The position numbers and the translations under genes were made by a program. Shown one piece after another: positions 3,732 through 27,730 of a stretch of 64,000 bases of DNA (positions within the stretch are counted from its first letter, which is position 1; each line of letters begins with the position of its first letter). The stretch spans positions 2,812,423 through 2,876,422 of the forward strand of contig CBDDPU010000004.1 of assembly GCA_965232435.1 (NCBI GenBank), in the 5' to 3' direction. The notes beneath the pieces are model-generated. The model had not been told where the DNA came from, ran no database searches, and saw only the letters and a list, made by a program, of their open reading frames with translations. Source of the stretch: Dehalococcoidia bacterium (GTDB lineage: Bacteria > Chloroflexota > Dehalococcoidia > Lucifugimonadales > VXLM01).

Positions 3732-6281
3732 TTACTCGGAGGGAGGAGCTATGAGCTCCAGCCAGATCGTTTCGTGCGGCTGGTCCAACAACTCCGGGTG
3801 GAGAATGCTTACCAAGTCCATCAGAAGGAGGTCGACCCGGTAGTTGACGGCTGTCTTGTAGAAGTCGTCATTACCGGGCTTGAACTTGTGGAACGCATTC
3901 CCGTTGTGCAACGGGTCCAGCTCACCGTAGATCGGTCTGGTACTTACCCACCCGTCCCCATCTGTAAAGTCCAAGTCGGGGAAGACGGCGTTGTGCGAAT
4001 CGTTCAACCAGAAGTCGGAGGCCGCTGCTACTTCCAGCACCACTTCCCCTGATATTGTGGCGGACGCGTCGAGTGCGATGTCCTCATCGAGCAGGATCGG
4101 CGTCCCGCCCGCGTCGCGGATCAGGTGATAGTCGAGGTAATCCGGGCCGCGCGTGAACCACGCGCCGCTGCTGAGGGCCTGGCCGTGCAGCACCGTGCTG
4201 CGTTCAGCGACCGGAACCGCGCTTGCCACTCTCTCCGCCAGCGCAACGTATGCCTCCTCGACCGGAGCGAACAACTCGGTGGCCTTCTTTTCTTTGTTGA
4301 AGAACAGCGACCAGAACTTCAGGTGCTCCGCTGATCCTAGCGGAACCTCCCAGAACGAATTGTAGAACACGGCAGGAAGGCCAAGGGAGCGCGCCGTCTC
4401 ACGCTGGCTGGCGTTGAACGGAACGACCACCATGTCTGGCTCGGCCGCCACCACCGGCTCCCACGCGTCTGCCGCTCCGGTAACCAGGAAGCCGTCGGAT
4501 TGGTACCGCTTGGCCAGTTCCGGCGTGGTCTCGGAGACATCGCCGGACGGAAGGTACCCCAGCCCTATCAGTGACTCCGCTTCGCCCAGGTACTCCAGCG
4601 CCGTCACAACCGATGCGCCGCGGGAGTTCTCGTAGACCCTTTCCACAGGAATCGGGACGATTTGAGTCCCAGCGAGATTGCCGGTGAGCTCCGGCGCCGG
4701 CGTTCCCTTCTGAACGAGCACGTAGGTCTCTCGGGAACCGGCGTTGGCGTCGCCCACAGGGCCCATGTTCACGATCTTGTAGTTGCCGTGATAGGTGACC
4801 GTCCAATCCTCGGCCCATTTTACCTGGACCTTGTCCGGGAAGTAGTCCGTCCCTGCAACATATTCTTCCACCGGGCCCTGGGGATTGCTCGCGATGACTC
4901 CTATCTCGGCGGCCGTTTCGATCCGATCAAGGAACACAAGCTGGTGATTGGGGAGCAGTCCCGGATGGATTATGCTTACGATGTCCTTCAGGAGGATGTC
5001 CGCCCGCACGGCTCCGGTGCTGTGGTAATCGCTCTCACGCCCATATCTGTGGAAGGCGTTGCCCGCGGTCATCGGGGCGAAATCCCCGTTCAGCGGGTTG
5101 CGCTCGAGAAACTCGGGAACAGTCCGCTCACTGGGAATGTAGGCCATGTCGAACCAGTATTCCGCGCCCTGCCCATGTTCGAGCGCCGTCTCCACCGCGA
5201 CTCCTCCAAAGCCCAGGTGAGCCGTACCGTCCAGCAAGCCCTGGTCGACGGCCTTCAGCAAAGGACGAGCCCCACCCGCGTCTTCGATCAGTATTGACTC
5301 GAGCCGGGTGCGATTCCTGCTCTGGAATTGTCCGGACCTTGCGATAGTGCCCAGCAGAACGGAGGGACTTGCCGGCTGGCTTTGGGCAAGGGACTTGACC
5401 ATATTGTACTCTTCGGCAATTGGCTCGAAGTACCGGTTGGCCCTGGCCTCCAGGTTGAAGAACAGCGACACAAACTTCACCTGCTCCGCCGAGCCCAAAG
5501 GGCCCTCGGAGAAGGGAGAGTAGTGAATGGCGGGCACGCCAACTTGGAGCGCGTTGTTCCGCCAGTCGTCGCCGTTGTACTGGAAGTACACGTCAGGGTC
5601 GCCGTTCAGGATCAGTTCCAAGTCATCTCCGTAGCTGGTCTCCTCGAATATGTCATCCTGGGTGACTCGAGCGACCACATCCGGGAGGAAGTGGTTCTTG
5701 TGGCCTGAAGTTCTTGTGTTGACTCCAATCAGCCGGTCCAGAGCGCCGAGCGCGTTCAGCGCCGCGAAGGTGGCGCCGCCGCCTTCCCAGAAGCGCTGAA
5801 CAGGCACCTCGACAGCCAACGCATCTTCAAGCTCGCCGGAAAGTTCCGGCGCCGGCGTCCCGCACTGCACCAGAACGTATCGAATTAGGTTCTGCGCGTC
5901 CGGGCTGGTGTCCGTATCAACTGTTACCACCTTGTAGTTGTTGAAGTACTCGACCTGCCACTCCTTGGCATATTGAGCTTCAGCCTTGTCGGGAAAGTAG
6001 TCGGTCTCCTCCTCGTAGGTATCCGTGCACTTCTGAAGGTTGTTGATGATAAGGTTCTTCACCACAGGCACCTGTACCTCGACCGGCACCTCTTTCTCCA
6101 CCTCCACTACCCGATCTACGGGAACTTCCACAGGTACCTGTACCTCGACCGGCACCTCTTTTATCACTTCCACTGTCCGTTCTACGGGCACCTCAACTTC
6201 CACTACCCTCTCGCCACAGGCCATAAGAATGGCGACGGTCAAGAGGAGTGGCATTAGGATCCCCAAGCTTATCTTTGGCAT
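3732..6281 (-). CDS. tandem-duplicated periplasmic-binding-protein lipoprotein (two iron-siderophore/cobalamin-type PBP modules in one 849-aa chain)
   Basis: Lipobox LMAC after the signal peptide, then a Val/Glu/Pro repeat linker. Two homologous halves: TDYFPDKAEAQYAKEWQVEYFNNYKVV...YVLVQCGTPAPELSG versus TDYFPDKVQVKWAEDWTVTYHGNYKIV...YVLVQKGTPAPELTG, with tails LLKDIVSIIHPGLL versus LLMDLVSILHPELL. AGGAG RBS at 6292-6296. Confidence 0.75.
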   Translation of the reverse strand: MPKISLGILMPLLLTVAILMACGERVVEVEVPVERTVEVIKEVPVEVQVPVEVPVDRVVEVEKEVPVEVQVPVVKNLIINNLQKCTDTYEEETDYFPDKAEAQYAKEWQVEYFNNYKVVTVDTDTSPDAQNLIRYVLVQCGTPAPELSGELEDALAVEVPVQRFWEGGGATFAALNALGALDRLIGVNTRTSGHKNHFLPDVVARVTQDDIFEETSYGDDLELILNGDPDVYFQYNGDDWRNNALQVGVPAIHYSPFSEGPLGSAEQVKFVSLFFNLEARANRYFEPIAEEYNMVKSLAQSQPASPSVLLGTIARSGQFQSRNRTRLESILIEDAGGARPLLKAVDQGLLDGTAHLGFGGVAVETALEHGQGAEYWFDMAYIPSERTVPEFLERNPLNGDFAPMTAGNAFHRYGRESDYHSTGAVRADILLKDIVSIIHPGLLPNHQLVFLDRIETAAEIGVIASNPQGPVEEYVAGTDYFPDKVQVKWAEDWTVTYHGNYKIVNMGPVGDANAGSRETYVLVQKGTPAPELTGNLAGTQIVPIPVERVYENSRGASVVTALEYLGEAESLIGLGYLPSGDVSETTPELAKRYQSDGFLVTGAADAWEPVVAAEPDMVVVPFNASQRETARSLGLPAVFYNSFWEVPLGSAEHLKFWSLFFNKEKKATELFAPVEEAYVALAERVASAVPVAERSTVLHGQALSSGAWFTRGPDYLDYHLIRDAGGTPILLDEDIALDASATISGEVVLEVAAASDFWLNDSHNAVFPDLDFTDGDGWVSTRPIYGELDPLHNGNAFHKFKPGNDDFYKTAVNYRVDLLLMDLVSILHPELLDQPHETIWLELIAPPSE
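6062..6193 (-). repeat. 2 x 66-bp tandem direct repeat inside the binding-protein gene (22-aa EVPVEVQVPVEVPV-type linker units)
   Basis: 6062-6127 and 6128-6193 align base for base at roughly 85% identity (ccacagg[c/t]acctgtacctcgaccggcacctctt...). Confidence 0.9.
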
Positions 6282-8155: not shown

Positions 8156-8182
8156 GTCATTCCGGCGCAGGCCGGAATCCAG
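8156..8182 (+). repeat. 27-nt hairpin repeat, GTCATTCC family
   Basis: gtcattccggcgcaggccggaatccag, with 7-bp stem ttccggc/gccggaa and loop gcag. Identical to 10908-10934. Confidence 0.9.
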
Positions 8183-8286: not shown

Positions 8287-10713
8287 TTGGAAATTCCATG
8301 TTCGATCCGGCAGTTAATCCTAGTTGGCATCGTTGCTCTAGTCCTCTCCACATTGTCCATCTCGCCTACGACATCCGCTCATGCGGACTCGCCCGACGAC
8401 TTCGACGGCCAGACCCTCTACGTCTGGCACGAGACCGATGAATCCGAAGGCTGCCTGGACGTCAAGCACGGCGACCGTTCCGACGGGCAGGACGTCTGGA
8501 CTTGGGAATGCAACAAGACCGACGCCCAGAAGTGGATTTTCGAAAAGCGTACCGCAGGCGACTACAAGGGCAGCTACCGCCTGGTTAGCGCCCTAGGCAG
8601 CGACACCCATTGCCTGGACAACCGCGGCGACTTCACCACCGGTGACCGCATGGGCATCTGGAGCTGCGTCAGCGACACCCACGGTGCGGCTCCCAACCAG
8701 TCGGTGACCATCGCCGCATCCGGCGACGGCTACACCATAACCTTCGTGCGCAACAGCGACAGCAAGAGCGTCTGGCTGGTGACCGACCGGGCCTCGAACA
8801 ACCCGAAGGGCGGCGCCAACCAGACCACCGTGACCGACACCGTCCCCGACTCGGCGGTGTGGGTAATCAGCGCCACGGCCCCCGACGAGACGCCCAACAT
8901 CGTGCTGCCCAACCTAGTGCTGGCCAACAATAGCGACGACGATGATGACGACGATATCCAGCCCGAGAATGTCGACACCGACACCGACCCGTACGACGGC
9001 AAGACGTTCTTCCTGAGGCACCCGAGTGGCAGCGCCGTGGACTGCCTGGAGGTAGCCAGCTCAGCCCCAACCACCCCACTTGAGACCGGCGACTGCGACT
9101 ACGACGAGAACGAGGAATGGACCTTCCAAAAGCGCACCTCGGGTGAATGGGCGGGCTCCTACAGGATGGTTTACAAGCCGACCATTGGCACCAATAGGGT
9201 GCTCTGCGCCGTCATGAGCGCCGATTACACGAGCATCGACACGAATATAAAGCTCGGCCGTTGCAGAGGCGACAACGACGGCAGGGCGGACTACCAGACG
9301 TTCACGGTAGAGAGTGTGGCCGGCGGCTACGCCATCCGGTTCGCCACCGATCACCCCTATATGCATTTCTATTACACGCGGCTAGGGGTGACCAAAGACG
9401 ACGACAACAACGACGACGTTGCTACCATCCCAGCCGGCACCGCCCGCAACGGGATCGTCGCCCCGACCGCTGCGGTGACCTGGGAGCTGCTGCAAGGGGA
9501 GCCCGCCGAAGACTTTGACGACCAGATTGTGCAGATATACCAGGTGGATGGCACCTCCACGGCCTGCCTCTCGGCGACTCCGCGAAAAAGCAACTACTCA
9601 AGCTTGATATGGGTCGAAGAGGATCTGGTTAATGTCGCCGCGTGCAGCGACAGCCCCTTCCAGTTCTGGCGGTTGGAGAAGATGACGGGCGGCGCCTACC
9701 TGATACGCTCCATGGCTGCCAATCAGGTGAATTGCCTTGACAACCACAGCCACTTCGAGACCAACTCCGCCCTGAAGGCCGGGCGCTGCGCGGTCAATTC
9801 CAACTACACAGCGTCTGTCAACACCGACAGCTACCACTACTACAACCCGGTGGTGGACCAGTCGGTGACCATCACCGCCGAGGGCACCGGCTACACTCTG
9901 AAGTTCGACAATGGCACCAAGAGCTCTTGGATCACCACCGACCGGGCTGCCGGCAGTACTAGCGGGAGCGCAGAGCAGACGACAGTCGTAGACACCGTGC
10001 CTGACTCGGCGGTCTGGGGCATCGGGACGGTTGCTGACCGCATAGCCCTGAGGACCAACCCCACCTTGGTGAAACCCGTGGACCCGTACCACGGCAAGAC
10101 ATTCAGGATCAAATCACGCTACAAGGCGGGGGGAACCGGCGGCTGGATAGCTTCATGCCTGCACCCGGGGGGAAGCAAAGTCCCTAACAACAAAGCCGGT
10201 GACTACCTCATCATCGCCGGTGCAGGTGGCCCCTGCCACAGTCACAACACGGGCGTCTATAATGGCTACGAAAGCTTGGCCTCTTGGACGATCGAGAGGC
10301 GCGCATCCGGCGACTATGCAGGCTACTACCGGTTTGTAAGCCAGGCCGGCAATAAGGACATTTGCCTGGACGCCGACGTTGCCAACACCATTGACGGCGG
10401 CCTGGAGTTCACCACCACCCTCAGCACAGCGAAGACTGGCATCCACGTCGACACCTGCGTCGGCGACGACCATGCCGAAGTGGCGAGCCAGTCGGTGAAG
10501 ATAACCGTGCACAACGACGGCAATGGCGCATGGGGCAAGGACTCCTACACCTTGACCTTCGTCGAAGACACCAGCGATGACGCCAAAGAGGTATGGCTCT
10601 CGGCGATAAACTGGATCGGCCGTGTCGGCCAGCGTGTGGTGACCGACGAGGTGCACGACATGGCCATCTTCTACCTGGAGGAGCAGGTGCACGCCGTCCC
10701 CGATCGCCCGTAG
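8287..10713 (+). CDS. secreted protein with four tandem ricin-B-like (beta-trefoil, QxW) lectin modules and a poly-Asp linker
   Basis: TTG start and signal peptide ending ...SPTTSAHA. Four ~190-aa homologous modules: FDGQTLYVW..QKWIFEKRTAGDYKGSYRLVS..CLDN; YDGKTFFLR..EEWTFQKRTSGEWAGSYRMVY; FDDQIVQIY..FQFWRLEKMTGGAYLIRS..CLDN; YHGKTFRIK..ASWTIERRASGDYAGYYRFVS..CLDA. A D7 run lies between modules 1 and 2. Confidence 0.6.
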   Translation: MEIPCSIRQLILVGIVALVLSTLSISPTTSAHADSPDDFDGQTLYVWHETDESEGCLDVKHGDRSDGQDVWTWECNKTDAQKWIFEKRTAGDYKGSYRLVSALGSDTHCLDNRGDFTTGDRMGIWSCVSDTHGAAPNQSVTIAASGDGYTITFVRNSDSKSVWLVTDRASNNPKGGANQTTVTDTVPDSAVWVISATAPDETPNIVLPNLVLANNSDDDDDDDIQPENVDTDTDPYDGKTFFLRHPSGSAVDCLEVASSAPTTPLETGDCDYDENEEWTFQKRTSGEWAGSYRMVYKPTIGTNRVLCAVMSADYTSIDTNIKLGRCRGDNDGRADYQTFTVESVAGGYAIRFATDHPYMHFYYTRLGVTKDDDNNDDVATIPAGTARNGIVAPTAAVTWELLQGEPAEDFDDQIVQIYQVDGTSTACLSATPRKSNYSSLIWVEEDLVNVAACSDSPFQFWRLEKMTGGAYLIRSMAANQVNCLDNHSHFETNSALKAGRCAVNSNYTASVNTDSYHYYNPVVDQSVTITAEGTGYTLKFDNGTKSSWITTDRAAGSTSGSAEQTTVVDTVPDSAVWGIGTVADRIALRTNPTLVKPVDPYHGKTFRIKSRYKAGGTGGWIASCLHPGGSKVPNNKAGDYLIIAGAGGPCHSHNTGVYNGYESLASWTIERRASGDYAGYYRFVSQAGNKDICLDADVANTIDGGLEFTTTLSTAKTGIHVDTCVGDDHAEVASQSVKITVHNDGNGAWGKDSYTLTFVEDTSDDAKEVWLSAINWIGRVGQRVVTDEVHDMAIFYLEEQVHAVPDRP

Positions 10714-10755: not shown

Positions 10756-10769
10756 CGAATCCGCAATCC

Positions 10770-10832
10770 CCGTTCGTGGTGAGCCTGTCGAACCATGAAC
10801 CCTTCACTCTTCGACAAGCTCAGGGCGAACGG
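10770..10832 (+). repeat. second dispersed repeat family (ccgttcgtggtgagcc... and ...gctcagggcgaacgg units)
   Basis: ccgttcgtggtgagcc (10770-10785) recurs exactly at 37255-37270. gctcagggcgaacgg (10818-10832) recurs at 11002-11016. Confidence 0.8.
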
Positions 10833-10907
10833 GGCCCCCTCGCGCTAGACCAACCCTCTCCCCGCCCCTCTCCCGCGAACGGGAGAGGGGCCCAGCCCCA
10901 TCCAACC

Positions 10908-10934
10908 GTCATTCCGGCGCAGGCCGGAATCCAG
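10908..10934 (+). repeat. 27-nt hairpin repeat, GTCATTCC family
   Basis: gtcattccggcgcaggccggaatccag, identical to 8156-8182 and in the same orientation. Confidence 0.9.
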
Positions 10935-11317
10935 TCGCATCCCCTCTCCCGTCATGGGAGAGTGCATATGCATCACCCTCCGGCAGCCTCAGGAGAGCCA
11001 AGCTCAGGGCGAACGGGGGGCTCTGACGGATTTTGGGAGACGAGATGAGGGATTGCGAGTACTGTTTTTCCGGGAGTTCTTCTTCGGATTTTGGGACGTT
11101 TTCGGACATTCCCGCTTGTTTGGGCAGTCGGTGATCAGTTTTAAACTACCCCTCGCTCCCGCATCGGGTACGGGGCCTGCCCCATACTCGATACGGGGAA
11201 GACTCTCTCCCAGTACGGGGATTTATTGGATTGGCGCGTATGAATAGAATGGCACATGTGCACTATGACCTCATTTCGGGACGGGAATAGTTGCCTTGTC
11301 CCGGTCCGCAAGTGACC

Positions 11318-11346: not shown

Positions 11347-11407
11347 TGGGTAACGCTTGCGCGGGTACCCCGGTACCGCTTCTCCGGCTAATAACAGGAC
11401 CGCATTA

Positions 11408-12460
11408 GTGAAAGATCTCCTCCAACTCCGCAAACTGTCCAAGGGCCTAAAGACCTCGTACCACGGATCGGACGTCAACCGTCGAGTGAAAACGTTCGAT
11501 GGATGGCTGGACAGAGCGCCGGACGGCGGGAAAGATGACTCGGCCGGCTACGACCACGCCGAAACCGTCAAGGAATACTACGACCTTTGCACTGATTTCA
11601 TGGTGTTCGGCTGGAGCGAATCTCTCCACTTCGCGCCGCTGTCGCCCATGGAGAGCCTGGAAGAATCTCAGACTCGGCATCAGCGACTGATGATCTCCAA
11701 GCTGGAACTGCAAGAGGGCATGACGGTGATTGATGTCGGATGTGGGATCGGCGGCCCGCTTCGCCGCGTCGTCCGGGAGGCCGGCGTCAAGGCCGTCGGC
11801 GTAAACACCAACGAAATCCAACTGAGCAAGGCGAGATCGTTGGACGCCGAGGCGGGAATCGAGGACATGGTGGACTACCTCACATGCAGCTTCATGAATA
11901 TGGACACCCTCGCAGACGATACCTTCGACCGCGGCTACGCCATCGAATCGACCTGCCATGCGCCGGACAAAGTGGGCGCGTTCGCCGAGATCTACCGCGT
12001 GCTGAAACCGGGAGCGCTGTTTTGGGGTCAGGAAATGTGCATGACCGACAAGTTCAATCCCGATGACCCTCGGCACCGGGACGCCAAGCGGGACCTGATG
12101 CAAGGCATCGCGCTCAAGGAGATCGCAACCATGGGCGAGGTGAACCGAGCCCTCGAAACGGCCGGATTCGAGGTCATCGAGGGGAGGGACAGGGCCGTCG
12201 AAGGAAACGGTTCGACCACTCCGTGGTTTCAGCCGATGGAAACCCGGCGAGGAACGCTTGGCAGCGCCATGCGGAGGATTCCGCTGGGCCGCAAGCTCCT
12301 CATCGGGGGATCGAGGGTGGCCGAAGCGCTGAGGGTGTTCCCGAAGGGTTCCGCGGACGTCATTGAACTGATGGACCGTACCGCCAACGCCTACGTCGCA
12401 GGCGGCAGGACCGGGATATTCACACCGCTATACTGTTTCCTAGCCCGCAAACCCCTTTAA
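11408..12460 (+). CDS. sterol 24-C-methyltransferase family protein (Erg6/SMT-like SAM-dependent methyltransferase)
   Basis: Matches remembered Erg6 blocks. YYDLCTDFMVFGWSESLHF versus YYNVVTDFYEYGWGSSFHF. IDVGCGIGGP versus LDVGCGVGGP. YAIESTCHAP versus YAIEATCHAP. YRVLKPGA versus YKVLKPGG. C-terminal GGRTGIFTPLYCFLARKP versus GGKSKLFTPMMLFVARKP. A GTG start at 11408 is preferred because AGGA lies 9 nt upstream and the promoter is at 11318-11346; the maximal ORF starts with TTG at 11357. Confidence 0.8.
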   Translation: MKDLLQLRKLSKGLKTSYHGSDVNRRVKTFDGWLDRAPDGGKDDSAGYDHAETVKEYYDLCTDFMVFGWSESLHFAPLSPMESLEESQTRHQRLMISKLELQEGMTVIDVGCGIGGPLRRVVREAGVKAVGVNTNEIQLSKARSLDAEAGIEDMVDYLTCSFMNMDTLADDTFDRGYAIESTCHAPDKVGAFAEIYRVLKPGALFWGQEMCMTDKFNPDDPRHRDAKRDLMQGIALKEIATMGEVNRALETAGFEVIEGRDRAVEGNGSTTPWFQPMETRRGTLGSAMRRIPLGRKLLIGGSRVAEALRVFPKGSADVIELMDRTANAYVAGGRTGIFTPLYCFLARKPL

Positions 12461-12591: not shown

Positions 12592-15500
12592 ATGATGATG
12601 AACAACAAGAAGATAAACCGGCGGCTAAACGCGATCACGTACGCCATAATCGCGACATGGCAACTTGTCGCCAAGCGCGCGCTCGCCCATTGGCGGCTGC
12701 TTTCATACGTCGTCATCGGCGTTGTTCTGGCATCTGCCATCCTCTCGGGGACCGTCATCTACTTCGAGGCCCTCAGGGAACTGGCCCTCAAGAATTCGCT
12801 GCAAAAGCGAACAACCGAACAGCTCAACATCACCCTCCGCACGAGCAGAGGTCCCACCAACAATGAAGAATACGGCAAGGTCACAGCCGTTGTAGCGCCA
12901 CTCGCGAACCGTCACGTCTCGTGGATGATTCGCGATTCCGTCCATGCGGGCCGCACCCCAACCTTCTTCCTTGGAAGCCCCGGCAGCGAAGCGGCAGCAG
13001 CAGACGGCAATGACCGCACGTTCTTCGCGTTCATAGACGACCTGGAAGAACGATTGCCTCTTTATCAAGGGTCATCGCCCAAACTCGCCGCTGCCATCGG
13101 CTTCGGCGAGCCGCTGGAGTTGGAAGCGTTGGTTCCTCTCCGCGCAATGCGGGAGATGGGCGCTCAAGTCGGCGACCGGTTCGCAGCGGTCCCCACTATC
13201 TCATCCGATATCCCACACGTATACGTCACCATTTCCGGCGTCTTCGACATAGAAGACGCCAACGATCCCGAGCTCGTCGCCTTCACCGAGCAAGTGCTGC
13301 AGACCCGCTCGGTTACGACCGACTTGCAAGTCATGCCGTTCTTCATCTCTCGTCAGTCGTTCCTCGATGCGCTCGGCGTTTCAATCGGAGGCATGACGGC
13401 CAACTACTATTGGTACCTCAAGACCGATCCAAGCCTGATAAACGCCGACAACTCGCAGCTAACCGTGGCCAATATCCAAGTCATGACAAGCCGGGCGGTT
13501 GCGGCTCTGCAAACGTTCTCCCTCACGACGGGCCTTGACGACGCGTTGATCGAGTACGACCAGCGGCTCTTCTTCAGCAGGCTTCCTATGTTCATCGTGC
13601 TCATCCTCATCGCCTTCGTGATCCTCTACTACGTCGCCACCATGTCTTCGCTCCTCGTGGAGAACCAACGTTCCGAAGTCGCGCAGTTCCGCAGCCGAGG
13701 CTCCGACACGTCTCAAATACTCACTGTTTTCATCATGGAGGGAGCGATGATAGCCCTGCTCGCGGCATTCATCGCGCCTCCCATCGCCGCGGTCACCATC
13801 AGCCTGCTGGGCCTCACTCCCGCGTTTTTCGGACTCACAGGCGGCGGTCTGTTGTCGGTTGAAATATCACCTGCCGCATACGCCCTGAGTGTCCTTGGCG
13901 GCGTACTAGGATTCGTCGCTTTACTCCTCCCCGCGCTCCAGGCGTCGCGCTTCGGCATAACACAACAGCGTCAACAGTCTTCCCGCCCTGCCGCCCTGCC
14001 GGTTTTTCAGCGGTACTATTTGGACGTTCTTCTCCTTCTCGTCGCAATTTTTCTATTCCGACAACTGACCGAACAAGGGTCGGTTGTCGCGCGCGACGTG
14101 TTTGGCGCCGCCGTGGCCGACGAACTCCTCCTCGCCGTGCCGGGCCTCGTCCTGGTAGCCTCCGCCATGGTGCTGCTCAGACTCTTCCCGCTCGCAATGA
14201 ACCTCATCAGCAAGCTCTTTTCCAAAGTCTTGCCGGTCGCGGGCGCCATGACCGTCTGGCAAATGTCCCGCCAACCGACTCACTACTCCCGCCTCTCACT
14301 TCTGCTAATTCTCACGGCAGGCCTGGGAATCTTCGCTTCGAGCTTCGGGACAACCCTCCAACGCAGCTTTGAAGAGCGAATCCTCCATGTCTCCGGCAGC
14401 GACGTGCGACTCGTAGGCGTCAACCGATCCTCCGATTCCGACGGCGTCGCCCCCATGATTGACGGGCGATTCGGCGAGGAGATCGCCTACGAGGAAATTC
14501 CGGGCGTGGAGACTGCCAGCGCCGTTCTCAGAAGGGCCGGACGCGACCTGTCCAAACAGCAGGGAGGGTCGTTCGAGTTGATCGCGCTAAACAGCGCCAA
14601 CTTCGACAACGCAGCGTGGTTCCGCGACGACTTCTCCAACGAACCGATATCAGACCTGCTCACGCGAATACGTCCCGATGAGTCAATACGCGCGCGCGGC
14701 GGCATCGAACTCCCGGCCAACGCCTCGTCTATCGGGGCGAGAATTAAGGCGGACCGAATGCAGCCCACGCTCCAGGTGGCGGCGCGCCTGAGGAACTCGA
14801 ACGATAAGCAGGCGACCTACGGCTTGGGCCTGGCCAGGTCAAGCGACTGGCTGACTCTCGATGTCCCATTGGCCACGGAGGGGCGAGAAGAATTCCTGGC
14901 AAACGGCCCCATAACGTTGGACGCCCTTTACGTAATCCAGTCCAACCTCAATATCCCGCTTCGACCCGGCACACTCCTTATTGATGACGTTCACGTCACC
15001 ACGACCGACAACCGCCAGGAATTGATCGAGAGTTTCGATTCCATCGAGGCGTGGTCTCTACTCAAGACGACGGAAGACTCGATCAATGACGAGCTGAGAC
15101 CGTCTGCGGAGGTCTTTAGTGACGTGTCGGGAGCCGCTGTCTTCACTTGGGCGAGGGGCGAACCGCTGACGCCGCGGGGAATCTTTGTCGGCGACGAACC
15201 GCCGCCGATCAGAGTTCTGGCCAGTGAAGTCTTCCTCAACGACGGCGGCCATCGCGTCGGCGATCAATTCGAAGTGTCAGTCGATCGAGCCAGGATACTT
15301 GTCACCATCGTCGGCTCCGTGGAACTCTTCCCCACGGTCACGACCGACCTCAAGAGCTACCTCATCGCGGATATCTCGGCTCTCAACGCCTTCACCGCCA
15401 GTGGCGTCGCCGACCAACCCTTCCTGCCCGAAGAACTTTGGATCGCCTCTCCTACCACCGGCAAGGCAAGGGAGAGCCTCTTGGAGAGCGTCAAGAATAT

Positions 15501-16014
15501 CGAGGGCTTCAATTTCCTCGCCGTTCTCGACCGCGAAGAGCGATTCCGCGCCAATGACGCCAGCGTCGATCCTCTCGTCGACGCCGGATGGCGGGCGCTG
15601 CTCTTCATCGCCTTCTCCGCGGTACTGCTGCTCAGCTGCCTCGGGTTCCTTGTCCACGCCTATTCGTCCTTCCGAAGCAGACAGGTGCAGTTTGCGCTCA
15701 TGAGGACAACCGGGCTGTCCGGCCGTCAGCTCATGATGATGATGTGGTTGGAACAGACCGTCATCATAGCCGTCGGCCTCGCGCTCGGCGCCTGGATGGG
15801 GAGCAGGCTCGGCGCGACAATTATGCCGTTTCTGGGACACGACGACTTCGGCGGCAAAGTTATCCCCCCGTTCGTCATGGTTATCGACTGGAACGCCTTG
15901 CTCATCACGTACGCCGTCATGCTAGTCATCTTCGCCGTCATCACCCTAGCCCTGATCATGCTGATCCGCCGTCTCTCGCTCGCACGCATTCTTCGCATCG
16001 GCGAGTTGGGCTAA
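12592..16014 (+). CDS. large ABC-type permease with two FtsX (MacB/LolCE-like) transmembrane domains and large extracytoplasmic loops
   Basis: 1140 aa with two FtsX-type 4-TM blocks, around residues 330-480 (...ENQRSEVAQFRSRGSDTSQILTVFIMEGAMIALL...) and 1000-1140 (...SRQVQFALMRTTGLSGRQLMMMMWLEQTVIIAVGLALG...). No adjacent ATPase gene. Confidence 0.75.
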   Translation: MMMNNKKINRRLNAITYAIIATWQLVAKRALAHWRLLSYVVIGVVLASAILSGTVIYFEALRELALKNSLQKRTTEQLNITLRTSRGPTNNEEYGKVTAVVAPLANRHVSWMIRDSVHAGRTPTFFLGSPGSEAAAADGNDRTFFAFIDDLEERLPLYQGSSPKLAAAIGFGEPLELEALVPLRAMREMGAQVGDRFAAVPTISSDIPHVYVTISGVFDIEDANDPELVAFTEQVLQTRSVTTDLQVMPFFISRQSFLDALGVSIGGMTANYYWYLKTDPSLINADNSQLTVANIQVMTSRAVAALQTFSLTTGLDDALIEYDQRLFFSRLPMFIVLILIAFVILYYVATMSSLLVENQRSEVAQFRSRGSDTSQILTVFIMEGAMIALLAAFIAPPIAAVTISLLGLTPAFFGLTGGGLLSVEISPAAYALSVLGGVLGFVALLLPALQASRFGITQQRQQSSRPAALPVFQRYYLDVLLLLVAIFLFRQLTEQGSVVARDVFGAAVADELLLAVPGLVLVASAMVLLRLFPLAMNLISKLFSKVLPVAGAMTVWQMSRQPTHYSRLSLLLILTAGLGIFASSFGTTLQRSFEERILHVSGSDVRLVGVNRSSDSDGVAPMIDGRFGEEIAYEEIPGVETASAVLRRAGRDLSKQQGGSFELIALNSANFDNAAWFRDDFSNEPISDLLTRIRPDESIRARGGIELPANASSIGARIKADRMQPTLQVAARLRNSNDKQATYGLGLARSSDWLTLDVPLATEGREEFLANGPITLDALYVIQSNLNIPLRPGTLLIDDVHVTTTDNRQELIESFDSIEAWSLLKTTEDSINDELRPSAEVFSDVSGAAVFTWARGEPLTPRGIFVGDEPPPIRVLASEVFLNDGGHRVGDQFEVSVDRARILVTIVGSVELFPTVTTDLKSYLIADISALNAFTASGVADQPFLPEELWIASPTTGKARESLLESVKNIEGFNFLAVLDREERFRANDASVDPLVDAGWRALLFIAFSAVLLLSCLGFLVHAYSSFRSRQVQFALMRTTGLSGRQLMMMMWLEQTVIIAVGLALGAWMGSRLGATIMPFLGHDDFGGKVIPPFVMVIDWNALLITYAVMLVIFAVITLALIMLIRRLSLARILRIGELG

Positions 16015-16374
16015 GGCGAAACCGCCTCCCACGGGTTGCGCGGTCGATTTCGTCCGACGCCGGCGAAATCAGACGAATTTGCCGCGTTTATAGCGCGTGC
16101 CCAGGCAAGGCAGGACACAAGGCACAAGAGCCATCAGACAACGGCTCCATTTAGGCAAAGTAACCGAGGGACAGAGTTGGGGGGCCTTAGCTTCGTGGAC
16201 GTTACCCGTTACCATTGCCCGCTACTTTACGGCCAGATTAGCTGAAGGTATGACTAACGCGCTGGATCGTCAAGCAGTTCGTCGGGCAGATGCTGTTTGT
16301 GGTTTGACTCTTCGACTGGCTCAAGGGAGCCAAGCTCACTACAACGGTTTTCCGCGACTTCGCAATCAGAGCCT

Positions 16375-19179
16375 CTAAGCCCTCTCGCGATCCAGATTAA
16401 GGGCGAGGAGGCGGGCGATCATTTCGCCGTCGGTTAGGTCGGGGGGCCAGCCGTAGGCGGCAGAGACGGCCTCGTCGAGGTTCTTGCACGCCAGGTCAAG
16501 CCACGTGGGGCGGGCGTTGTAGAGGTTCGTCAGGGTGCGGCGTTTAAGTTCGCTTGGACTCACGGCATCCTCCGCCGGGTTCAGCCAGCCCTGGCGGAGG
16601 GAGTCGAGGCGTTGGGCGGCGTCCGCTATAGCCGCTTGCTGATCGGGCGATGGGCGTGGGAAGGGGAAGGTCTCGAAGGTTGTCGTGGGCGTGTATCGGA
16701 ACCCGGATTCGACCTCACGGAGTTGAGTGCCCTGAGACCGCGCCCAGAGTTCATGCGGCCGGGAATGGAGCACCCCGAAGAAATAGTCGTCGTCGCGGGC
16801 AAAGGCTATGACTACGTTGGCGGCAAGAGTATTGTTCTGCGCCCACACAAACATCCTATGTTTTGATAAGTTGGGAGTGACAATGAAACGGCCCAGCCCC
16901 TGTATCGCGGCGCGCATTCCGGGTCGTGGCTCCATGTGGAGCCACCAGTTCTTGGCATATGCCTCTCGCTTGCTCTTGCTGCGAAACGGTTTGACGTTCT
17001 CACGGACGTACTCGAAAGGCGCTTCGTAGAGCGCGGCTTCTTCCAACGTCGTCCCCGGCGGAAAGTCGATAATCCACATATTCCGACGGCGTCCCGTGAT
17101 GTCCGACCCGTTGATCCACGGACGCACCACGTCTCTATTCGAGCGACCGTCGGGGTTTGGCTGGGCGAGAAGCCGCTTGGCCAGCGCGTCGTCAATGTCG
17201 AAGGGGCCTCCCTTCGTATCTCCCATGAAGGCGATTCCGAGATTTTCCTTCAGCCTTCCGGCCTTCGTTACGTCAGTATCGCCGGAGGTCAGGTTGGCGT
17301 ATATATCGGAAACTTGGAGGCCGTCCAGTTCGCGGGCCGTTTCCCGCCCGTCGTCGAATCCGACCATCGACACCTGCACGGCGGCGCCGTCGAGCGTCCA
17401 CACACGGTCGGACTGCGCCCAGAATATGCCGCCCGACTGCGCTATGCGGTTGAGGACGTCGCGGTTTCTCCCGCCGCGAATGCCCTGGGTGGCAAGCAGG
17501 CCCGCGCGTTCCGCCCGTCCCGATTCGACTTGCTCCCTAGCCTTCTCGAACCAATAGCAGCAAAGGTCGGCCTCGCGAGGGACGCGATCATTCCACACAT
17601 CGAACATTGCATCGACGTATTCGTCTCCCAACTCCTGGCGAAGCAGCTTGCCACCAAGAAACGGCGGATTGCCGACGATGACCTCCGCGACCGGCCATTC
17701 GGGCTCGGTCAACGCGCCGGTCTTGTCTCGCCCAACAATGGCGTCCATCCGCGCGATGTTCTCGAGAGGTTCGAGGATAGGCGATTCGCTTTCGAGATCG
17801 AAGGCGTTGCGATACTTCCATTGGAGGTATCCGATCCACACGACGGCGGACGCGAGCTCCTGCGCGTACTCGTTGGTCTCTATGCCCCAAAGCTGCCGGG
17901 GATGTACGCCGGGGGTCAGACCCGCGACGCCGTACTGCTCTCCGAAAGCGATGACTTCCTTTTCCAGCGCCTTGAGCAGCGTCAGACTGACGTACAGGAA
18001 GTTTCCCGAACCGCAGGCCGGATCGAGGACTCGGATCGTGGCGAGTCGCCCAAGGAACCGCGAAAGTATCTCGGTGAGCTGGGATTTGAGGAACTCACTG
18101 TCGTATTCGGGTTGGACCTGCCAGTCGATGTATTTCTCCGCCTTCGCCTTCTCTCGTTCCCACGCCTGCCGCAGCGGACTCATCAAGACAGGTTCGACGA
18201 TAAGCTCGATGTCCTCTCGCGACGTGTAGTGCGTTCCGAGCTGCCTGCGCTTGCTCTCGTCGATGATCCGCTCGAACAGCGTGCCGAAAATCGAAGGTTC
18301 GATATCCGACCAGTCCAGGTCGTTCAGTTTTTCGAGCAGGGCGATCTGGTCTGCGATCAGCTCGGGAACGGAGGTGTCGTCGAAGAGTCCGCCGTTGAAG
18401 TGCGGCACGTCCCGCATGAGGAACCGCCCGCCGTCCTTCATAGCGGCGAAGAGCTCGCCCGTGTACTTCTGAAAGTCATCGGGCCTGGTCCTGTTGACCC
18501 TTATCAGATTGGTAAATGCCTCTTGATCCAGGAGACCAACGTCGCTTGCGAAGAAGCAGAAGATCATGCGCATGATGAAGTGCGCGATTTCCTGCTCGCT
18601 GATGGGACTCTTGCTCTTTGCGTTCCACGTCCGCATGTCGTCCGCGAGGACGCGAAGCAGTTCCGCCGCCTCCTCGGTGAGCTTGGACTGGAGTTTGCCG
18701 GGATTGAGGCGTTCCGGGTCTTCGAACAGCGCTCGAAGTATTTGGAGGGGCGTGAGTCCCGAATCGTCTACCGGGTTGTCGGTTGATAGATCGGCGTTCG
18801 AGAACTCGTACTTGCGCTTTACGGTGTTGGTGAAGTTGGTATGGACCTGAAACGTGTTGAGGTCGCATACGACTAGCAGAGGGGGATTGCCGAGGGCCTC
18901 ACGATAGAGTTGAAGCTGCTGGTACGCCGCCGACAGGTCTTTGTTCGGCCCCTTGTATTCCCAGCCGAAGCAGTCTTTTCGCCAGACGTCGGCGAAGCCC
19001 TTGCCGCCGGTAGACTTGTCGAGGCCCTTTTCGAACGTGAACCAGTCGCCCTTCGGGTCTGCCTCCACGGGCGTTTGCTGGCCGGCCAGCCGGCAGATGT
19101 CAATGAAGTGCTCCTGAGCGCCTGCGCGCTCTCGAAGCTCCACTGTCGCCCATTTATTTACGTACTCAATCGGATTCAT
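16375..19179 (-). CDS. MmeI-family Type IIL restriction-modification enzyme (fused nuclease / N6-adenine DNA methyltransferase / specificity domain)
   Basis: N-terminal D-X9-E-X-K nuclease motif (ADVWRKDCFGWEYK, compare MmeI VDLFWPGILLIEMK). GTHYTS, SAM motif LDPACGSGNFL and catalytic motif VGNPPF. C-terminal LTNLYNARP...LDEAVSAAYGW resembles the MmeI tail. The ATG at 19179 (MNPIEYVNKW) is preferred; the maximal ORF starts at 19245. Confidence 0.8.
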   Translation of the reverse strand: MNPIEYVNKWATVELRERAGAQEHFIDICRLAGQQTPVEADPKGDWFTFEKGLDKSTGGKGFADVWRKDCFGWEYKGPNKDLSAAYQQLQLYREALGNPPLLVVCDLNTFQVHTNFTNTVKRKYEFSNADLSTDNPVDDSGLTPLQILRALFEDPERLNPGKLQSKLTEEAAELLRVLADDMRTWNAKSKSPISEQEIAHFIMRMIFCFFASDVGLLDQEAFTNLIRVNRTRPDDFQKYTGELFAAMKDGGRFLMRDVPHFNGGLFDDTSVPELIADQIALLEKLNDLDWSDIEPSIFGTLFERIIDESKRRQLGTHYTSREDIELIVEPVLMSPLRQAWEREKAKAEKYIDWQVQPEYDSEFLKSQLTEILSRFLGRLATIRVLDPACGSGNFLYVSLTLLKALEKEVIAFGEQYGVAGLTPGVHPRQLWGIETNEYAQELASAVVWIGYLQWKYRNAFDLESESPILEPLENIARMDAIVGRDKTGALTEPEWPVAEVIVGNPPFLGGKLLRQELGDEYVDAMFDVWNDRVPREADLCCYWFEKAREQVESGRAERAGLLATQGIRGGRNRDVLNRIAQSGGIFWAQSDRVWTLDGAAVQVSMVGFDDGRETARELDGLQVSDIYANLTSGDTDVTKAGRLKENLGIAFMGDTKGGPFDIDDALAKRLLAQPNPDGRSNRDVVRPWINGSDITGRRRNMWIIDFPPGTTLEEAALYEAPFEYVRENVKPFRSKSKREAYAKNWWLHMEPRPGMRAAIQGLGRFIVTPNLSKHRMFVWAQNNTLAANVVIAFARDDDYFFGVLHSRPHELWARSQGTQLREVESGFRYTPTTTFETFPFPRPSPDQQAAIADAAQRLDSLRQGWLNPAEDAVSPSELKRRTLTNLYNARPTWLDLACKNLDEAVSAAYGWPPDLTDGEMIARLLALNLDRERA

Positions 19180-19299
19180 GCTGTACCCATGGTGCAAGTT
19201 TCGCCAAGAGGTGAATCGCAATGGCGGTAAGTAATATTCCGCCAAGGGGTTCCATTCGGATATGCCACCAAGATAAGTTGGGAGAAGGCTTTAGCCCAA

Positions 19300-23933: not shown

Positions 23934-25043
23934 ATGGAACGACCGATCTTCAAGCCCATCGGAACACCAACAGAAGAACTCGACACCCCTTCGCTCATCG
24001 TCGATTTGGAGGCTCTCAGCCACAACATCGCGACGGTGGCATCTTTCTTCGAGAATACCGTCGCAAACCTTCGCCCTCATGTTGAGGCGCACCGAACGCC
24101 GGCCATCGCGCACAAGCAGCTTGCGGCCGGCGGCAATGTCGGGGGAATCGCCGTATCGAGCATCGGCCAAGCCGAGGTCTTCATTCCCAACGGCTTCAAC
24201 GATGTATTCGTTGCCAACCTCGTCGTGACCCATCAGAAAATCACCCGACTGTGCGCCCTCGCTCGACAGGCCAAGATCAGCGTCGCGGTCGACAGCGCCG
24301 CAAATGTGGCCGACCTATCAGACGCCGCGGTCGCCAATAACGTGATCATCGGCGTGTCCATATTCGTCAACACCCGACTCGGACTCTACGGAGTGGAACC
24401 CGGACCGGCGGCGGTCGAGTTGGCGAAAGCGGCCGTGAATGCCCCGGGCCTCGATTTCACCGGGATAATGACCCAAGAAGGCGGCATCCTGGTGGACGAC
24501 GCCGACCAAGCAGCCGACGAATCCCGCGCCGCCGTCCAACCGCTCTTGAACACTCGCGAAGATATCGAACGGGCCGGGATCGACGTTCGAGCAGTGAGCG
24601 CCGGGAACACCTCCAATTATCAGGTCGTCGGATCCATTGCCGGCGTGACCGAAGTGCCCGCAGGCGCATATTCGCTCCTCGACGCTCAGCACGCCCCCTT
24701 CTTACCGCATCTCAAGGCCGCCGGGCGGGTCATGACTACCGTCACCAGTCGTCCAGAGCCGGGTTACATGATCACCGACGGCGGCCAAAAGGCCATTGGC
24801 GCCGACACCGGGTTCCCCTCGATCGACAACCTGCCGAGCCCCACCGTGAAGGGCCTCAGCGCCGAACATGGCAGCATATACTTCGACTCGACGGGCGGGG
24901 TCGATCCCCAGCTTGGCGACAAGATATGGTGCACACCTTGGGACGCCGCCACGTGCGCCAACCTTCACGACTACATGTTTGCCGTCCGAAACGACGCCTT
25001 GGAAGCCGTGTGGGAAGTATCCGCGCGAGGACGGTATCGGTAA
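23934..25043 (+). CDS. D-serine dehydratase / D-threonine aldolase-like (alanine racemase N-domain fold) paralog lacking the PLP-lysine motif
   Basis: Family-typical N-terminus (LDTPSLIVDLEALSHNI) and C-terminus (AVWEVSARGRY). The RPHxKxHK motif reads RPHVEAHR, and the C-terminal PSHVDP-type metal motif reads TPWDAAT. Confidence 0.65.
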   Translation: MERPIFKPIGTPTEELDTPSLIVDLEALSHNIATVASFFENTVANLRPHVEAHRTPAIAHKQLAAGGNVGGIAVSSIGQAEVFIPNGFNDVFVANLVVTHQKITRLCALARQAKISVAVDSAANVADLSDAAVANNVIIGVSIFVNTRLGLYGVEPGPAAVELAKAAVNAPGLDFTGIMTQEGGILVDDADQAADESRAAVQPLLNTREDIERAGIDVRAVSAGNTSNYQVVGSIAGVTEVPAGAYSLLDAQHAPFLPHLKAAGRVMTTVTSRPEPGYMITDGGQKAIGADTGFPSIDNLPSPTVKGLSAEHGSIYFDSTGGVDPQLGDKIWCTPWDAATCANLHDYMFAVRNDALEAVWEVSARGRYR

Positions 25044-25101
25044 TCCCAAAAGGACTCTTCTACGCACTCTTATGAATGAAAAACCCCGGTCGGAGGACAA
25101 G

Positions 25102-26202
25102 ATGGACAGCACGGCCCATCAACGCGGCACACCACTAGACGAATTGGAAACCCCCTGCCTCATCGTCGAAATAGACTCGCTTGAGCACAACTACCGCGTG
25201 GTCTCGGACACTTACCGCAATACCGTGTGCAAGATGCGCCAGCACACCAAGAACATCAAGAGTCCCTTCCTTGCCAAGATGCAGATGGACATCGGCGGCT
25301 CGAACGGCGGCGTCTGCACGGCCAAGGTAGCCGAAGCGGAGATCATGGTTGAAGGCGGAATCACGGACATCCTCATTCCCAATCAAATCGTCACGGATGA
25401 CAAGATCAACCGTGTCTGTGCGCTCGCGAGGCACGGCGACATCAAGCTCTGTGTCGACAGCGTGGAGAACGTTCGGGCCATCTCCGAGGTCGCGACCCGC
25501 AACGGCGTCGACGTCGGCATTCTCATTGAAGTCGACACGTCCATGGGGCGGGCGGGTGTGCGCGGCCCCGAAGCCGGCGTGGAAATCGCACGCGCGGCCC
25601 AGGAATTGCCGGGCGTGGCATTCCGGGGCGTTATGAGCCACCAGAACGTTGGAGAGGCTTACAGCAAAGAAGATCGCTACCTCCGCGGCAAGGAAACCAT
25701 AGACATCTGCTTAAGGGTAAAGGACGCCATCGAGACGGCCGGCATCCCGGTCGAAATCGTCTCCAGCGGCGAAACGTTCTGCTACGACATAGCCGCGAAA
25801 ATCCCCGGCGTTACCGAAGTTGAAGGCGGCACATACGCCCTCATGTCCACGGGATACGGCTACATGAGCGAGTTCCAAATCGCAGGCAAGGTGCTCGGCA
25901 CCGTCGTCAGCGCTCCCCGTCCCGGAGTGGTCATCGGAGACGTGGGAATTCGCTCCATAGCGGGTCCTCAAGGCTTGCTGCCAACGGTCGACGGTCTGCC
26001 CGGAGTCGAAGTCAAGTCGCTCCATGACGACCACATCGTCCTATCCATGGACGACGCAAGCCCCCTCCACGTAGGCGACAAGTTCAAGCTCTTGCCCGGC
26101 CATCAAGACATGCTCGTCAACCGCTGGGACGAATACGTGGCCGTCCGTGACGGCGTCGTCGAAGAAGTATGGGATATTCCCGGTCGCGGCTGCTATCACT
26201 AG
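25102..26202 (+). CDS. D-serine dehydratase / D-threonine aldolase-like PLP enzyme (intact motifs)
   Basis: LETPCLIVEIDSLEHNY, lysine motif RQHTKNIK, C-terminal LPGHQDM and EVWDIPGRG. ATG at 25102 is preceded by GGAGG; the maximal ORF (24868) overlaps the upstream gene. Confidence 0.7.
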   Translation: MDSTAHQRGTPLDELETPCLIVEIDSLEHNYRVVSDTYRNTVCKMRQHTKNIKSPFLAKMQMDIGGSNGGVCTAKVAEAEIMVEGGITDILIPNQIVTDDKINRVCALARHGDIKLCVDSVENVRAISEVATRNGVDVGILIEVDTSMGRAGVRGPEAGVEIARAAQELPGVAFRGVMSHQNVGEAYSKEDRYLRGKETIDICLRVKDAIETAGIPVEIVSSGETFCYDIAAKIPGVTEVEGGTYALMSTGYGYMSEFQIAGKVLGTVVSAPRPGVVIGDVGIRSIAGPQGLLPTVDGLPGVEVKSLHDDHIVLSMDDASPLHVGDKFKLLPGHQDMLVNRWDEYVAVRDGVVEEVWDIPGRGCYH

Positions 26203-27406: not shown

Positions 27407-27564
27407 GCGCTAGACACCCACGACCGGAAGTTGATCCTAAAAATGATAGACCGTTCCGCACTCACGGTAAAGCCGCGATCTTGGAGAATTCCGCATACCT
27501 CATTGGCAAGCCAAACAACTCGCGAGGCATGGGCTGAATCAAGGCTGTGCCAGACCTCACCGGG

Positions 27565-27586
27565 TTCCGGCGCTCGCGGGAATGAC
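27565..27586 (-). repeat. GTCATTCC-family hairpin repeat (reverse orientation, imperfect)
   Basis: The plus strand reads ttccggcgctcgcgggaatgac; the reverse complement is gtcattcccgcgagcgccggaa. Confidence 0.7.
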
Positions 27587-27730
27587 GGTTTAGCAAGGTG
27601 TCTTTTCACGGGAACCGATAGCCACCGAGACGTGGGGAATCCAAGTGGAGAGCACTCATATCGAGTAGACTGGAGAGTTCGTGTCGGTATTGGTGATTGT
27701 CTTGAAGGTTTGCGTATGCTATAGTCGATT

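Follow-up and report, generated by a model that had tools for sequence, protein, structure and literature searches.

The window analysed here is a stretch of 64,000 nucleotides (64 kb) of contig CBDDPU010000004.1 from a Dehalococcoidia bacterium (positions 2,812,423 to 2,876,422), and the subject of this work is an open reading frame (ORF) in it for a relative of the eukaryotic sterol 24-C-methyltransferase (SMT; Erg6 in yeast). An earlier reading of the letters alone (the sequence-only reading) had placed the gene at 11357–12460, and a mechanical ORF list indeed contains this frame on the forward strand, with 367 codons counted from a TTG. The frame and the stop codon stand, but the start probably does not, since a database copy of the protein (P0001, 100% identity) is 350 aa long and the nucleotide homology to the nearest relative, the SMT at locus L001 (84% identity), begins at 11409; it spans 11409–12459 only and ends at both borders of the coding sequence (CDS). 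We therefore moved the start to the GTG at 11408, which makes the TTG 17 codons too early. An AGGA sits 8 nt 5' of this GTG.

Membership of the Erg6/SMT family was assessed from (i) domain profiles, (ii) full-length alignments and (iii) signature residues. The last 61 residues of the ORF (aa 306–366) were matched by the Pfam domain Sterol_MT_C (PF08498) over profile positions 5–65 of 66, and the core was also matched by Methyltransf_11, Methyltransf_25, Methyltransf_31 and CMAS. In BLASTP alignments, the protein shared 35% identity with yeast Erg6 along 333 aa (E = 4e-73; the Erg6 query agrees with all 25 published residue/position pairs) and 39% along 341 aa with a rice 'cycloartenol-C-24-methyltransferase 1-like' protein from the database (E = 1e-86). 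All four motifs that the sequence-only reading had quoted are present in the ORF. In Region I (motif 84-GWGxxFHF-91 preceded by aromatics at 81 and 83, Erg6 numbering) the window sequence FMVFGWSESLHF keeps G84, W85, H90 and F91 and has Phe at position 83, with the changes Y81M, G86S and F89L. The DxGxGxxGP motif of Region II is kept (D125, G127, G129, G132 and P133), as are E195 and G217 of Regions III/IV; in the C-terminal domain G333, G352, F357 and P359 are kept and L341 is replaced by Met. Judged from its domain content and alignments, the window gene is a real and intact bacterial relative of Erg6/SMT, beyond a generic methyltransferase.

The alternative that the protein is a generic lipid or small-molecule methyltransferase (cyclopropane fatty acid or mycolic acid synthase, UbiE or MitM-like) that merely resembles an SMT could draw on three results: the best Pfam E-value of the protein belongs to CMAS (3.3e-16), the best matches among solved structures are MitM and other non-sterol methyltransferases, and no NCBIfam model scored above its cutoff. 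However, the CMAS and structure matches span the shared core alone (aa 67–230), and the ranking of the PDB matches is uninformative because the sequence search turned up no genuine SMT structure. The entry 6f5z, labelled '24-sterol C-methyltransferase', was rejected as a genuine SMT; it is 231 aa long and matches the methyltransferase core alone (aa 109–223, E = 1.2e-6). The sequence-only reading, which had claimed an Erg6/SMT relative including the C-terminal domain, had proposed a search with Methyltransf_11/25 plus Sterol_MT_C, and had taken best hits to non-sterol methyltransferases lacking Sterol_MT_C as the outcome that would speak against it. Both kinds of profile were matched, Sterol_MT_C far above its cutoff, and the full-length alignments to Erg6 and plant SMT1 are highly significant; the family assignment is upheld. 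By the Sterol_MT_C match the generic alternative is refuted, and we assign it a negligible probability.

Relatives, the conserved cassette and the stand-alone copy

A protein search with the window SMT gave 2,655 matches at E ≤ 1e-10, the best 120 of which were 74–82% identical, 343–373 aa long and all carried PF08498. Relatives were found in 283 species-representative genomes when one genome per species was scanned. The best 80 of these were Dehalococcoidia, SAR202 or Chloroflexota metagenome-assembled genomes (MAGs; one is labelled Acidimicrobiales) with 72–82% identity, many of them from known sponge studies (Aplysina aerophoba bins 90 and 127, Ircinia bins, and long-read chromosomes of 2–4 Mb). 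Metagenome matches with a traceable source all came from sponges (Sarcotragus foetidus, Petrosia ficiformis and A. aerophoba). As far as the sources are identifiable, the subclade is confined to Chloroflexota (Dehalococcoidia/SAR202-like) symbionts of marine sponges. The nearest relatives outside the subclade were SMT homologs of sponge-associated Acidimicrobiia ('Ca. Poriferisocius', with the NCBI name 'sterol methyltransferase'; 45% identity to the window protein), followed by Dadabacteria homologs (43%) and plant SMT1 (41%). As a separate observation, the window SMT is 72–77% identical to those of L017, L079 and L070, which is above the values for FolD (55–56%) and ribosomal protein L21 (44%) of the same loci. 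The difference points to lateral spread of the gene among sponge Chloroflexota, or to unusually strong constraint.

The gene neighbourhood of the relatives was determined for 77 full-context loci, each with at least 3.5 kb on both sides of the SMT, and partners were sought by tblastn. On a JGI contig (L081) the SMT lies beside a MMPL/Patched/Sterol-sensing transporter, a GPP34-P450 fusion and a Rieske/KshA_C protein. Partners from this cassette were present at 63 of the 77 loci: all three at 46 and one or two at 17, which leaves 14 loci with none. The sterol-sensing-domain (SSD) transporter was found at 59 loci, sharing the strand of the SMT and separated from the SMT start by 12 nt in the median, and the GPP34-P450 gene is convergent to the SMT and lies about 50 nt downstream of it. 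The cassette, for which L061:7510–19180 is an example, extends about 3 kb to either side of the SMT in L001–L080. Recurrent extras were a FAD amine-oxidase-like protein (31 loci), an MFS transporter with an LppX/LprAFG-type lipoprotein (23–24 loci), ERG4/ERG24 reductases (7 loci) and a second SMT paralog with the canonical residues Y81, F89 and G249 (4 loci). The closest solved relatives of the transporter are the sterol-sensing domain of Patched-1, the hopanoid transporter HpnN, MmpL4/5, NPC1 and NPC1L1; that of the Rieske protein is KshA (3-ketosteroid 9-alpha-hydroxylase), and the P450 is distantly related to CYP120 and CYP51 (about 1e-16). Because of this cassette context, a sterol or steroid substrate for the subclade gains independent support. 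The description of the window gene as an orphan is not supported by these results, either for the family, with the same subclade in at least 283 species-representative genomes and 2,655 protein matches, or for the context, with a conserved sterol-associated cassette at most of the related loci.

The window copy differs from the majority: by tblastn, the 64 kb contain none of the cassette partners, and no remnants of cassette genes were detected in the flanks of the SMT at tblastn E-values up to 10. In a neighbour-joining tree on Kimura distances, relied on for this relation alone, the window copy is sister to L001, a carrier of the full cassette, and the identity between the two (82% at the amino acid and 84% at the nucleotide level) backs this relation. 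The 14 solo SMT loci are scattered over the same tree. Since the sister copy is cassette-bearing, the homology ends at the borders of the CDS, and the solo loci are scattered, the stand-alone state is, by sequence comparison, a derived one, in which the CDS alone was kept at another chromosomal site. A syntenic relation of the window to L001 was considered and rejected; the ABC/FecCD genes near both resemble each other no more than members of one family do (31–38% identity), which does not make the two sites descendants of a common one.

The window ORF is full length, without a stop or frameshift, and the ratio of nonsynonymous to synonymous substitution rates (dN/dS) of the window copy against L001–L004 was 0.17–0.20, compared with 0.19–0.21 among the cassette-linked copies. 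An intact ORF and a dN/dS equal to that of cassette-linked copies argue that the gene is maintained. That the window copy is a functionless relic after cassette loss is highly improbable. Such a relic would fit with the lack of any partner in the 64 kb, with the extra deviations Ser86 and Met341, with a consensus scan that detected no sigma-70-type promoter on the + strand of the upstream spacer, and with a dN/dS of about 0.6 in some other solo copies. On the other hand, the ORF is uninterrupted and its dN/dS is at the cassette-linked level, and Ser86 and Met341 occur in 25 and 38 of 82 clade members, respectively, mostly cassette-linked ones. The elevated dN/dS was seen in the solo lineage L035/L048/L059 compared with L047 (about 0.6, against about 0.2 elsewhere), indicating relaxed or altered selection after cassette loss in that lineage. 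Two of these solo copies, L035 and L048, lie on one contig, CBDEGP010000002.1.

Substrate pocket, predicted product and source of the sterol

Brown and Welander (bioRxiv 10.64898/2025.12.19.695621) listed 25 residues shared without exception by the SMTs that were active in their in vitro assays. Of these, 22 are found in the window protein, which departs from the set by G86S, F89L and L341M. Leu89 is present in 82/82 clade members, and at other pocket positions Met81 occurs in 81, Phe83 in 76 and Ile249 in 80 of the 82; the MAFFT and BLASTP alignments gave the same register for position 249. Since F89 is invariant in all active SMTs and the subclade carries Leu89, no assayed active enzyme belongs to the subclade; moreover, no subclade-bearing contig matches the contigs of the 2023 test set (PMC10070321). 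According to the same preprint (bioRxiv 10.64898/2025.12.19.695621), Gly249 is necessary for formation of 24-isopropyl side chains and Phe at 81 or 83 promotes it; all G249 substitutions, including Ile, abolished C30 products, and only A, S, N or T kept C29 products. The window protein has the Phe at position 83, but Ile instead of Gly at 249. In soybean SMT1, replacement of the Region I aromatics by Leu blocked the second methylation, and in yeast ethylation was gained only by the Y81F mutant. Because Met81 and Leu89 replace the Region I aromatics and position 249 is Ile, not Gly, we predict that the window enzyme would carry out at most one methylation and form no 24-ethyl or 24-isopropyl product. 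The bearing of the gene on 24-isopropyl biomarkers would thereby be weakened.

The same residues allow a different interpretation, in which the subclade, though of the SMT family, would have altered its substrate or regiochemistry, for instance C-26/C-27 methylation of a delta-25 side chain or action on another polycyclic triterpenoid, and the altered Region I would reflect that change and not a plain restriction to one methyl transfer. The pocket-lining residues are replaced clade-wide, published models with a docked sterol place positions 81 and 249 no more than 5 Å from its side chain (bioRxiv 10.64898/2025.12.19.695621), and the canonical second SMT that shares the cassette at 4 loci suggests a division of labour. 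Against a changed substrate, the SAM-binding and Region III/IV residues are all canonical, as are 22 of the 25 signature residues, and Leu and Met at the aromatic Region I sites are compatible with a plain single-methylating enzyme. Overall, we consider this alternative rather improbable. Very unlikely is the proposal that the Met81/Leu89/Ile249 subclade would be a regiochemically distinct side-chain alkylase, for example one of aplysterol-type 26-methylation, acting on sterols delivered by the adjoining sterol-sensing transporter. Aplysterol-type sterols give rise to the 26-methylstigmastane 'sponge' biomarker, and no enzyme is known for their 26-methyl step (PMC10070321). If the proposal were true, bacterial 26-methylation would further undercut the assignment of 26-methylstigmastane fossils to animals.

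With respect to the origin of the sterol, no oxidosqualene cyclase (OSC) or other sterol-synthesis gene is co-located with the SMT in the window. Pfam scans of 41 large ORFs gave no sterol-related domain besides those of the SMT, and tblastn with a symbiont fusion of squalene epoxidase (SE) and OSC and with the transporter, P450 and Rieske queries gave no match in the 64 kb; the earlier statement that the window holds no other sterol gene is thus correct. Neither OSC nor SE was found within 10 kb of the SMT loci L001–L112, and the ORFs within 10 kb of 80 genome-scan SMTs contained no cyclase motif. When a sponge-symbiont OSC (from the supplementary FASTA of PMC9531527) was used as query, 1 of about 75 large (Mb-scale) SMT-bearing contigs was among the best 120 of more than 1,200 matches. 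The window's own 3,071,145-bp contig was neither among these nor among the best 120 of more than 1,200 matches of the L001 transporter, which is weak evidence, as the known transporter of L064 was also missing from the best 120 transporter matches. The sequence-only reading had taken an SMT without a nearby sterol pathway to suggest the modification of host-derived sterols. In support of an external source, the Patched/NPC1-type sterol-sensing transporter abuts the SMT in the relatives in an operon-like arrangement. For the window genome, an exogenous sterol is somewhat more likely than de novo synthesis.

The same enzyme might instead act on self-made sterols, with SE and OSC elsewhere on the 3.07-Mb chromosome and the SMT as one scattered step of the pathway. 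On the 3,477,165-bp chromosome that carries L064, genes for SE, OSC, an SSD transporter and a GPP34-P450 (L113:8702–16817) lie about 0.4 Mb from the cassette, and the identical arrangement was found on an Ircinia symbiont scaffold (L114:8452–16568). The SE-OSC-linked transporter and P450 are paralogs of the SMT-linked pair (56–62% and 53–58% identical, respectively), and because this pair adjoins SE-OSC, the transporter plus GPP34-P450 module has a link not just to tailoring but also to sterol synthesis. A cyclase and an SMT are directly linked on a 5.7-kb contig of a Chloroflexi MAG (GCA_026707265.1), where an SE-OSC fusion adjoins an SMT of canonical type (L115:1–3518). Furthermore, steroid genes reportedly lie dispersed over the chromosomes of symbionts in many cases, and cyclase-containing ERG24-CYP51-LSS clusters are reported from Dehalococcoidia (PMC9531527). 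Against self-made sterols stand the low number of large SMT-bearing contigs among the best OSC matches, with the contig of the window not among them, and the lack of OSC and SE in the window. Three MAGs with the SMT cassette (Bin90, Bin127 and jk18x22bins.70) are scored 'CSG present: No' (PMC9531527, Table S1); we rejected this as proof that sterol synthesis is lacking, as the flag covers the ERG24-CYP51-LSS operon alone and would miss an SE-OSC-transporter-P450 arrangement as in L113/L114. Synthesis by the bacterium itself is judged unlikely, though it carries real weight. That the transporter plus GPP34-P450 module exists in two versions, beside genes for sterol synthesis or beside genes for tailoring, is an observation in its own right.

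In the mechanism that we propose, S-adenosylmethionine (SAM) would bind to the GxGxG loop, as expected from the family; Region I and the C-terminal domain would hold the sterol side chain such that the methyl group goes to its delta-24 double bond, and deprotonation would yield a 24-methyl or 24-methylene sterol. The cassette partners being lost, the window gene would be transcribed from its own upstream spacer. The sterol would be taken up from the host or from neighbouring cells rather than made by the bacterium, which is the weakest inference of the mechanism. The joint reading, that is, an intact and maintained SAM-dependent enzyme of the Erg6/SMT family that would perform at most one methylation on a sterol more likely exogenous than self-made, is held with about even confidence. 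Several observations weigh against it. The cassette partners are missing in the window, and an enzyme that needs them may have another role here. With F89 invariant in active SMTs and Leu89 throughout the subclade, the enzyme may be inactive on desmosterol or use another substrate, and Ser86 and Met341 are further deviations of the window copy. The promoter scan of the upstream spacer was negative, and the SE-OSC loci on the L064 chromosome and the Ircinia scaffold, together with the published cyclase clusters and scattered steroid genes, lend de novo sterol synthesis in the window genome some probability.

Flanking sequence and other content of the window

The SMT lies between a lectin gene and a gene for an FtsX-type permease, with spacers of 695 nt upstream and 132 nt downstream (Table 1). 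The repetitive extragenic palindromic (REP)-like cluster in the upstream spacer occupies the place of the transporter gene that abuts the SMT in the relatives. Exact second copies of its elements were found at 11000 and 8156 and degenerate ones at 16307 and 27559; no REP-like element was found in the 132-nt downstream spacer, and the GC content is flat across the region (0.59–0.61). The characterization of the gene as lying between repeat clusters in an accessory-looking stretch is thus right for the upstream spacer, but not for the downstream side or for the base composition. The pseudo-peptides 'SLSNHE...RQAQGER' and 'VIPAQAGIQ' of spurious ORFs are translated REP-like elements. Rfam and tRNA scans of the window were empty.

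Housekeeping genes in the window encode cytochrome c oxidase and its assembly factors, FolD, MTHFR, RNase J, FtsK and acetyl-CoA carboxylase. The ankyrin-repeat protein and the two tandem NHL-repeat paralogs are eukaryote-like and of the type found in sponge symbionts; the ricin-type lectin repeat protein and the MmeI-type restriction enzyme also belong to the sponge-symbiont type. The mechanical ORFs of the two adjacent Ala_racemase_N paralogs overlap by 176 nt, and one of the starts is probably miscalled.

Table 1. Features of the SMT gene, its flanks and other parts of the window (window positions).
Feature	Position	Strand	Evidence or description
SMT-family methyltransferase CDS, 350 aa, probable GTG start, TAA stop	11408–12460	+	database copy, nucleotide homology, AGGA, dN/dS
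In-frame upstream extension from TTG, probably untranslated	11357–11407	+	mechanical ORF list; without counterpart in any homolog
Region I (sterol-binding) DFMVFGWSESLHF, divergent: Met81, Phe83, Ser86, Leu89 (Erg6 numbering)	11594–11632	+	alignment to Erg6 and 82 clade members
Class I SAM-methyltransferase core	11729–12022	+	Pfam Methyltransf_11, 4.3e-15 over aa 125–222
Region II IDVGCGIGGP	11729–11758	+	within SAM-methyltransferase core
Region III YAIESTCHAP	11936–11965	+	within SAM-methyltransferase core
Region IV LKPGALF	12002–12022	+	within SAM-methyltransferase core
Sterol_MT_C domain including tail	12272–12454	+	Pfam PF08498, 56.9 bits against a cutoff of 21.7
C-terminal tail GGRTGIFTPLYCFLARKP	12401–12454	+	inside Sterol_MT_C domain
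Cluster of short REP-like palindromic elements, upstream spacer	10765–11020		hairpin pairs I1/I2, direct repeat D2
Weak terminator-like hairpin, 10 nt past stop codon	12470–12491	+	consensus scan alone, 4 sites against 2.0 expected; low confidence
Lectin gene, upstream neighbour	8287–10713	+	808 aa, ricin-type beta-trefoil domains, internal repeats (8696/9857), acidic linker
FtsX-type permease, downstream neighbour	12592–16014		1140 aa
Other REP-like elements	8156–8182, 16307–16338, 27559–27590		intergenic, as is the 10765–11020 cluster
66-nt tandem duplication (85% identity)	6062–6193		inside ORF 3732–6281 (-), 849-aa protein with periplasmic-binding domain
MmeI-family type IIL restriction-modification enzyme	16375–19245	-	70% identical to one in L007
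Adjacent paralogs	23934–25043, 24868–26202	+	Ala_racemase_N and D-serine dehydratase-like domains
Ribosomal protein L21	42789–43391		comparison gene
FolD	47692–48582		comparison gene
Tandem NHL-repeat paralogs	58188–59243, 59250–60305	-	74–76% nucleotide identity
Ankyrin-repeat protein	61694–63928	-	744 aa

Significance and comparison with known sterol methyltransferases

Steranes with alkylated side chains are read as a fossil record of eukaryotes and of the first animals, so that any bacterial origin of sterol alkylation bears on them; this point was already made with assayed enzymes in 2023–2025. What is added here is a very widespread, sponge-restricted SMT subclade of Chloroflexota, present in at least 283 species genomes. 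Its pocket residues set it apart from every assayed SMT, and it usually comes with a Patched/NPC1-like transporter, a GPP34-P450 fusion and a Rieske oxygenase as neighbours. The window copy indicates that the methyltransferase alone can stay under purifying selection after partner loss; it is a clean candidate for expression and not itself a discovery, and the subclade and the cassette are of higher interest. No description was found of the subclade pocket signature, of the cassette (SSD transporter, SMT, GPP34-P450 and KshA-like Rieske protein) or of the paralogous module on the SE-OSC side, all features of related loci and not of the window, nor any paper on the combination of GPP34, P450 and sterol in bacteria, in a searchable literature that was covered incompletely.

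The sequence-only reading held that SMTs are almost exclusively eukaryotic, which is outdated: SMTs from sponge symbionts and from free-living bacteria are active in vitro (Brown et al. 2023, Nat Commun, PMC10070321), and SMT1/ERG6 is enriched in MAGs of sponge symbionts (Kelly et al. 2022, Microbiome, PMC9531527). The window protein resembles the eukaryotic SMT1/Erg6 enzymes (EC 2.1.1.41) in an identity of 35–39% from end to end, with Regions I–IV and the C-terminal tail colinear. It differs from these in being bacterial, in its shorter N-terminus, in the replacement of the aromatic residues 81 and 89, and in the lack of a sterol pathway around it or known from its genome.

The likeness to the bacterial SMTs (PMC10070321; bioRxiv 10.64898/2025.12.19.695621) lies in the family (Methyltransf_11 plus Sterol_MT_C, with 22/25 signature residues in common) and in the habitat, as the metagenomes of A. 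aerophoba, P. ficiformis and S. foetidus hold members of the subclade. However, the active bacterial SMTs all have F89, whereas the subclade of the window protein has Leu89, Met81 and Ile249. The gene contexts also differ; the clusters of the bacterial SMTs tested are linked to OSC, CYP51 and sdmAB, the cassette of the subclade consists of transporter, GPP34-P450 and Rieske protein, and the window copy is unlinked. A Chlamydiae MAG (PMC10070321) provides a parallel for an SMT in a host-associated bacterium without other sterol genes, which its authors read as possible modification of host sterols; that enzyme, in contrast, is propylating and has Gly249 and Phe83, and the window protein, a member of another clade, carries Ile249. 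With the Ircinia clusters (ERG24-CYP51-LSS with or without SMT1/ERG6; PMC9531527) the present loci share the Dehalococcoidia as a carrier class, and locus L069, with its SMT cassette, belongs to a Chloroflexota MAG of that study. The Ircinia clusters are built around the cyclase, whereas the SMT loci described here have no cyclase nearby, and their partners (SSD transporter, GPP34-P450 and Rieske protein) were not described there. Overall, the window gene is not a unique orphan, but joins a family that is already known from sponge-symbiont bacteria.

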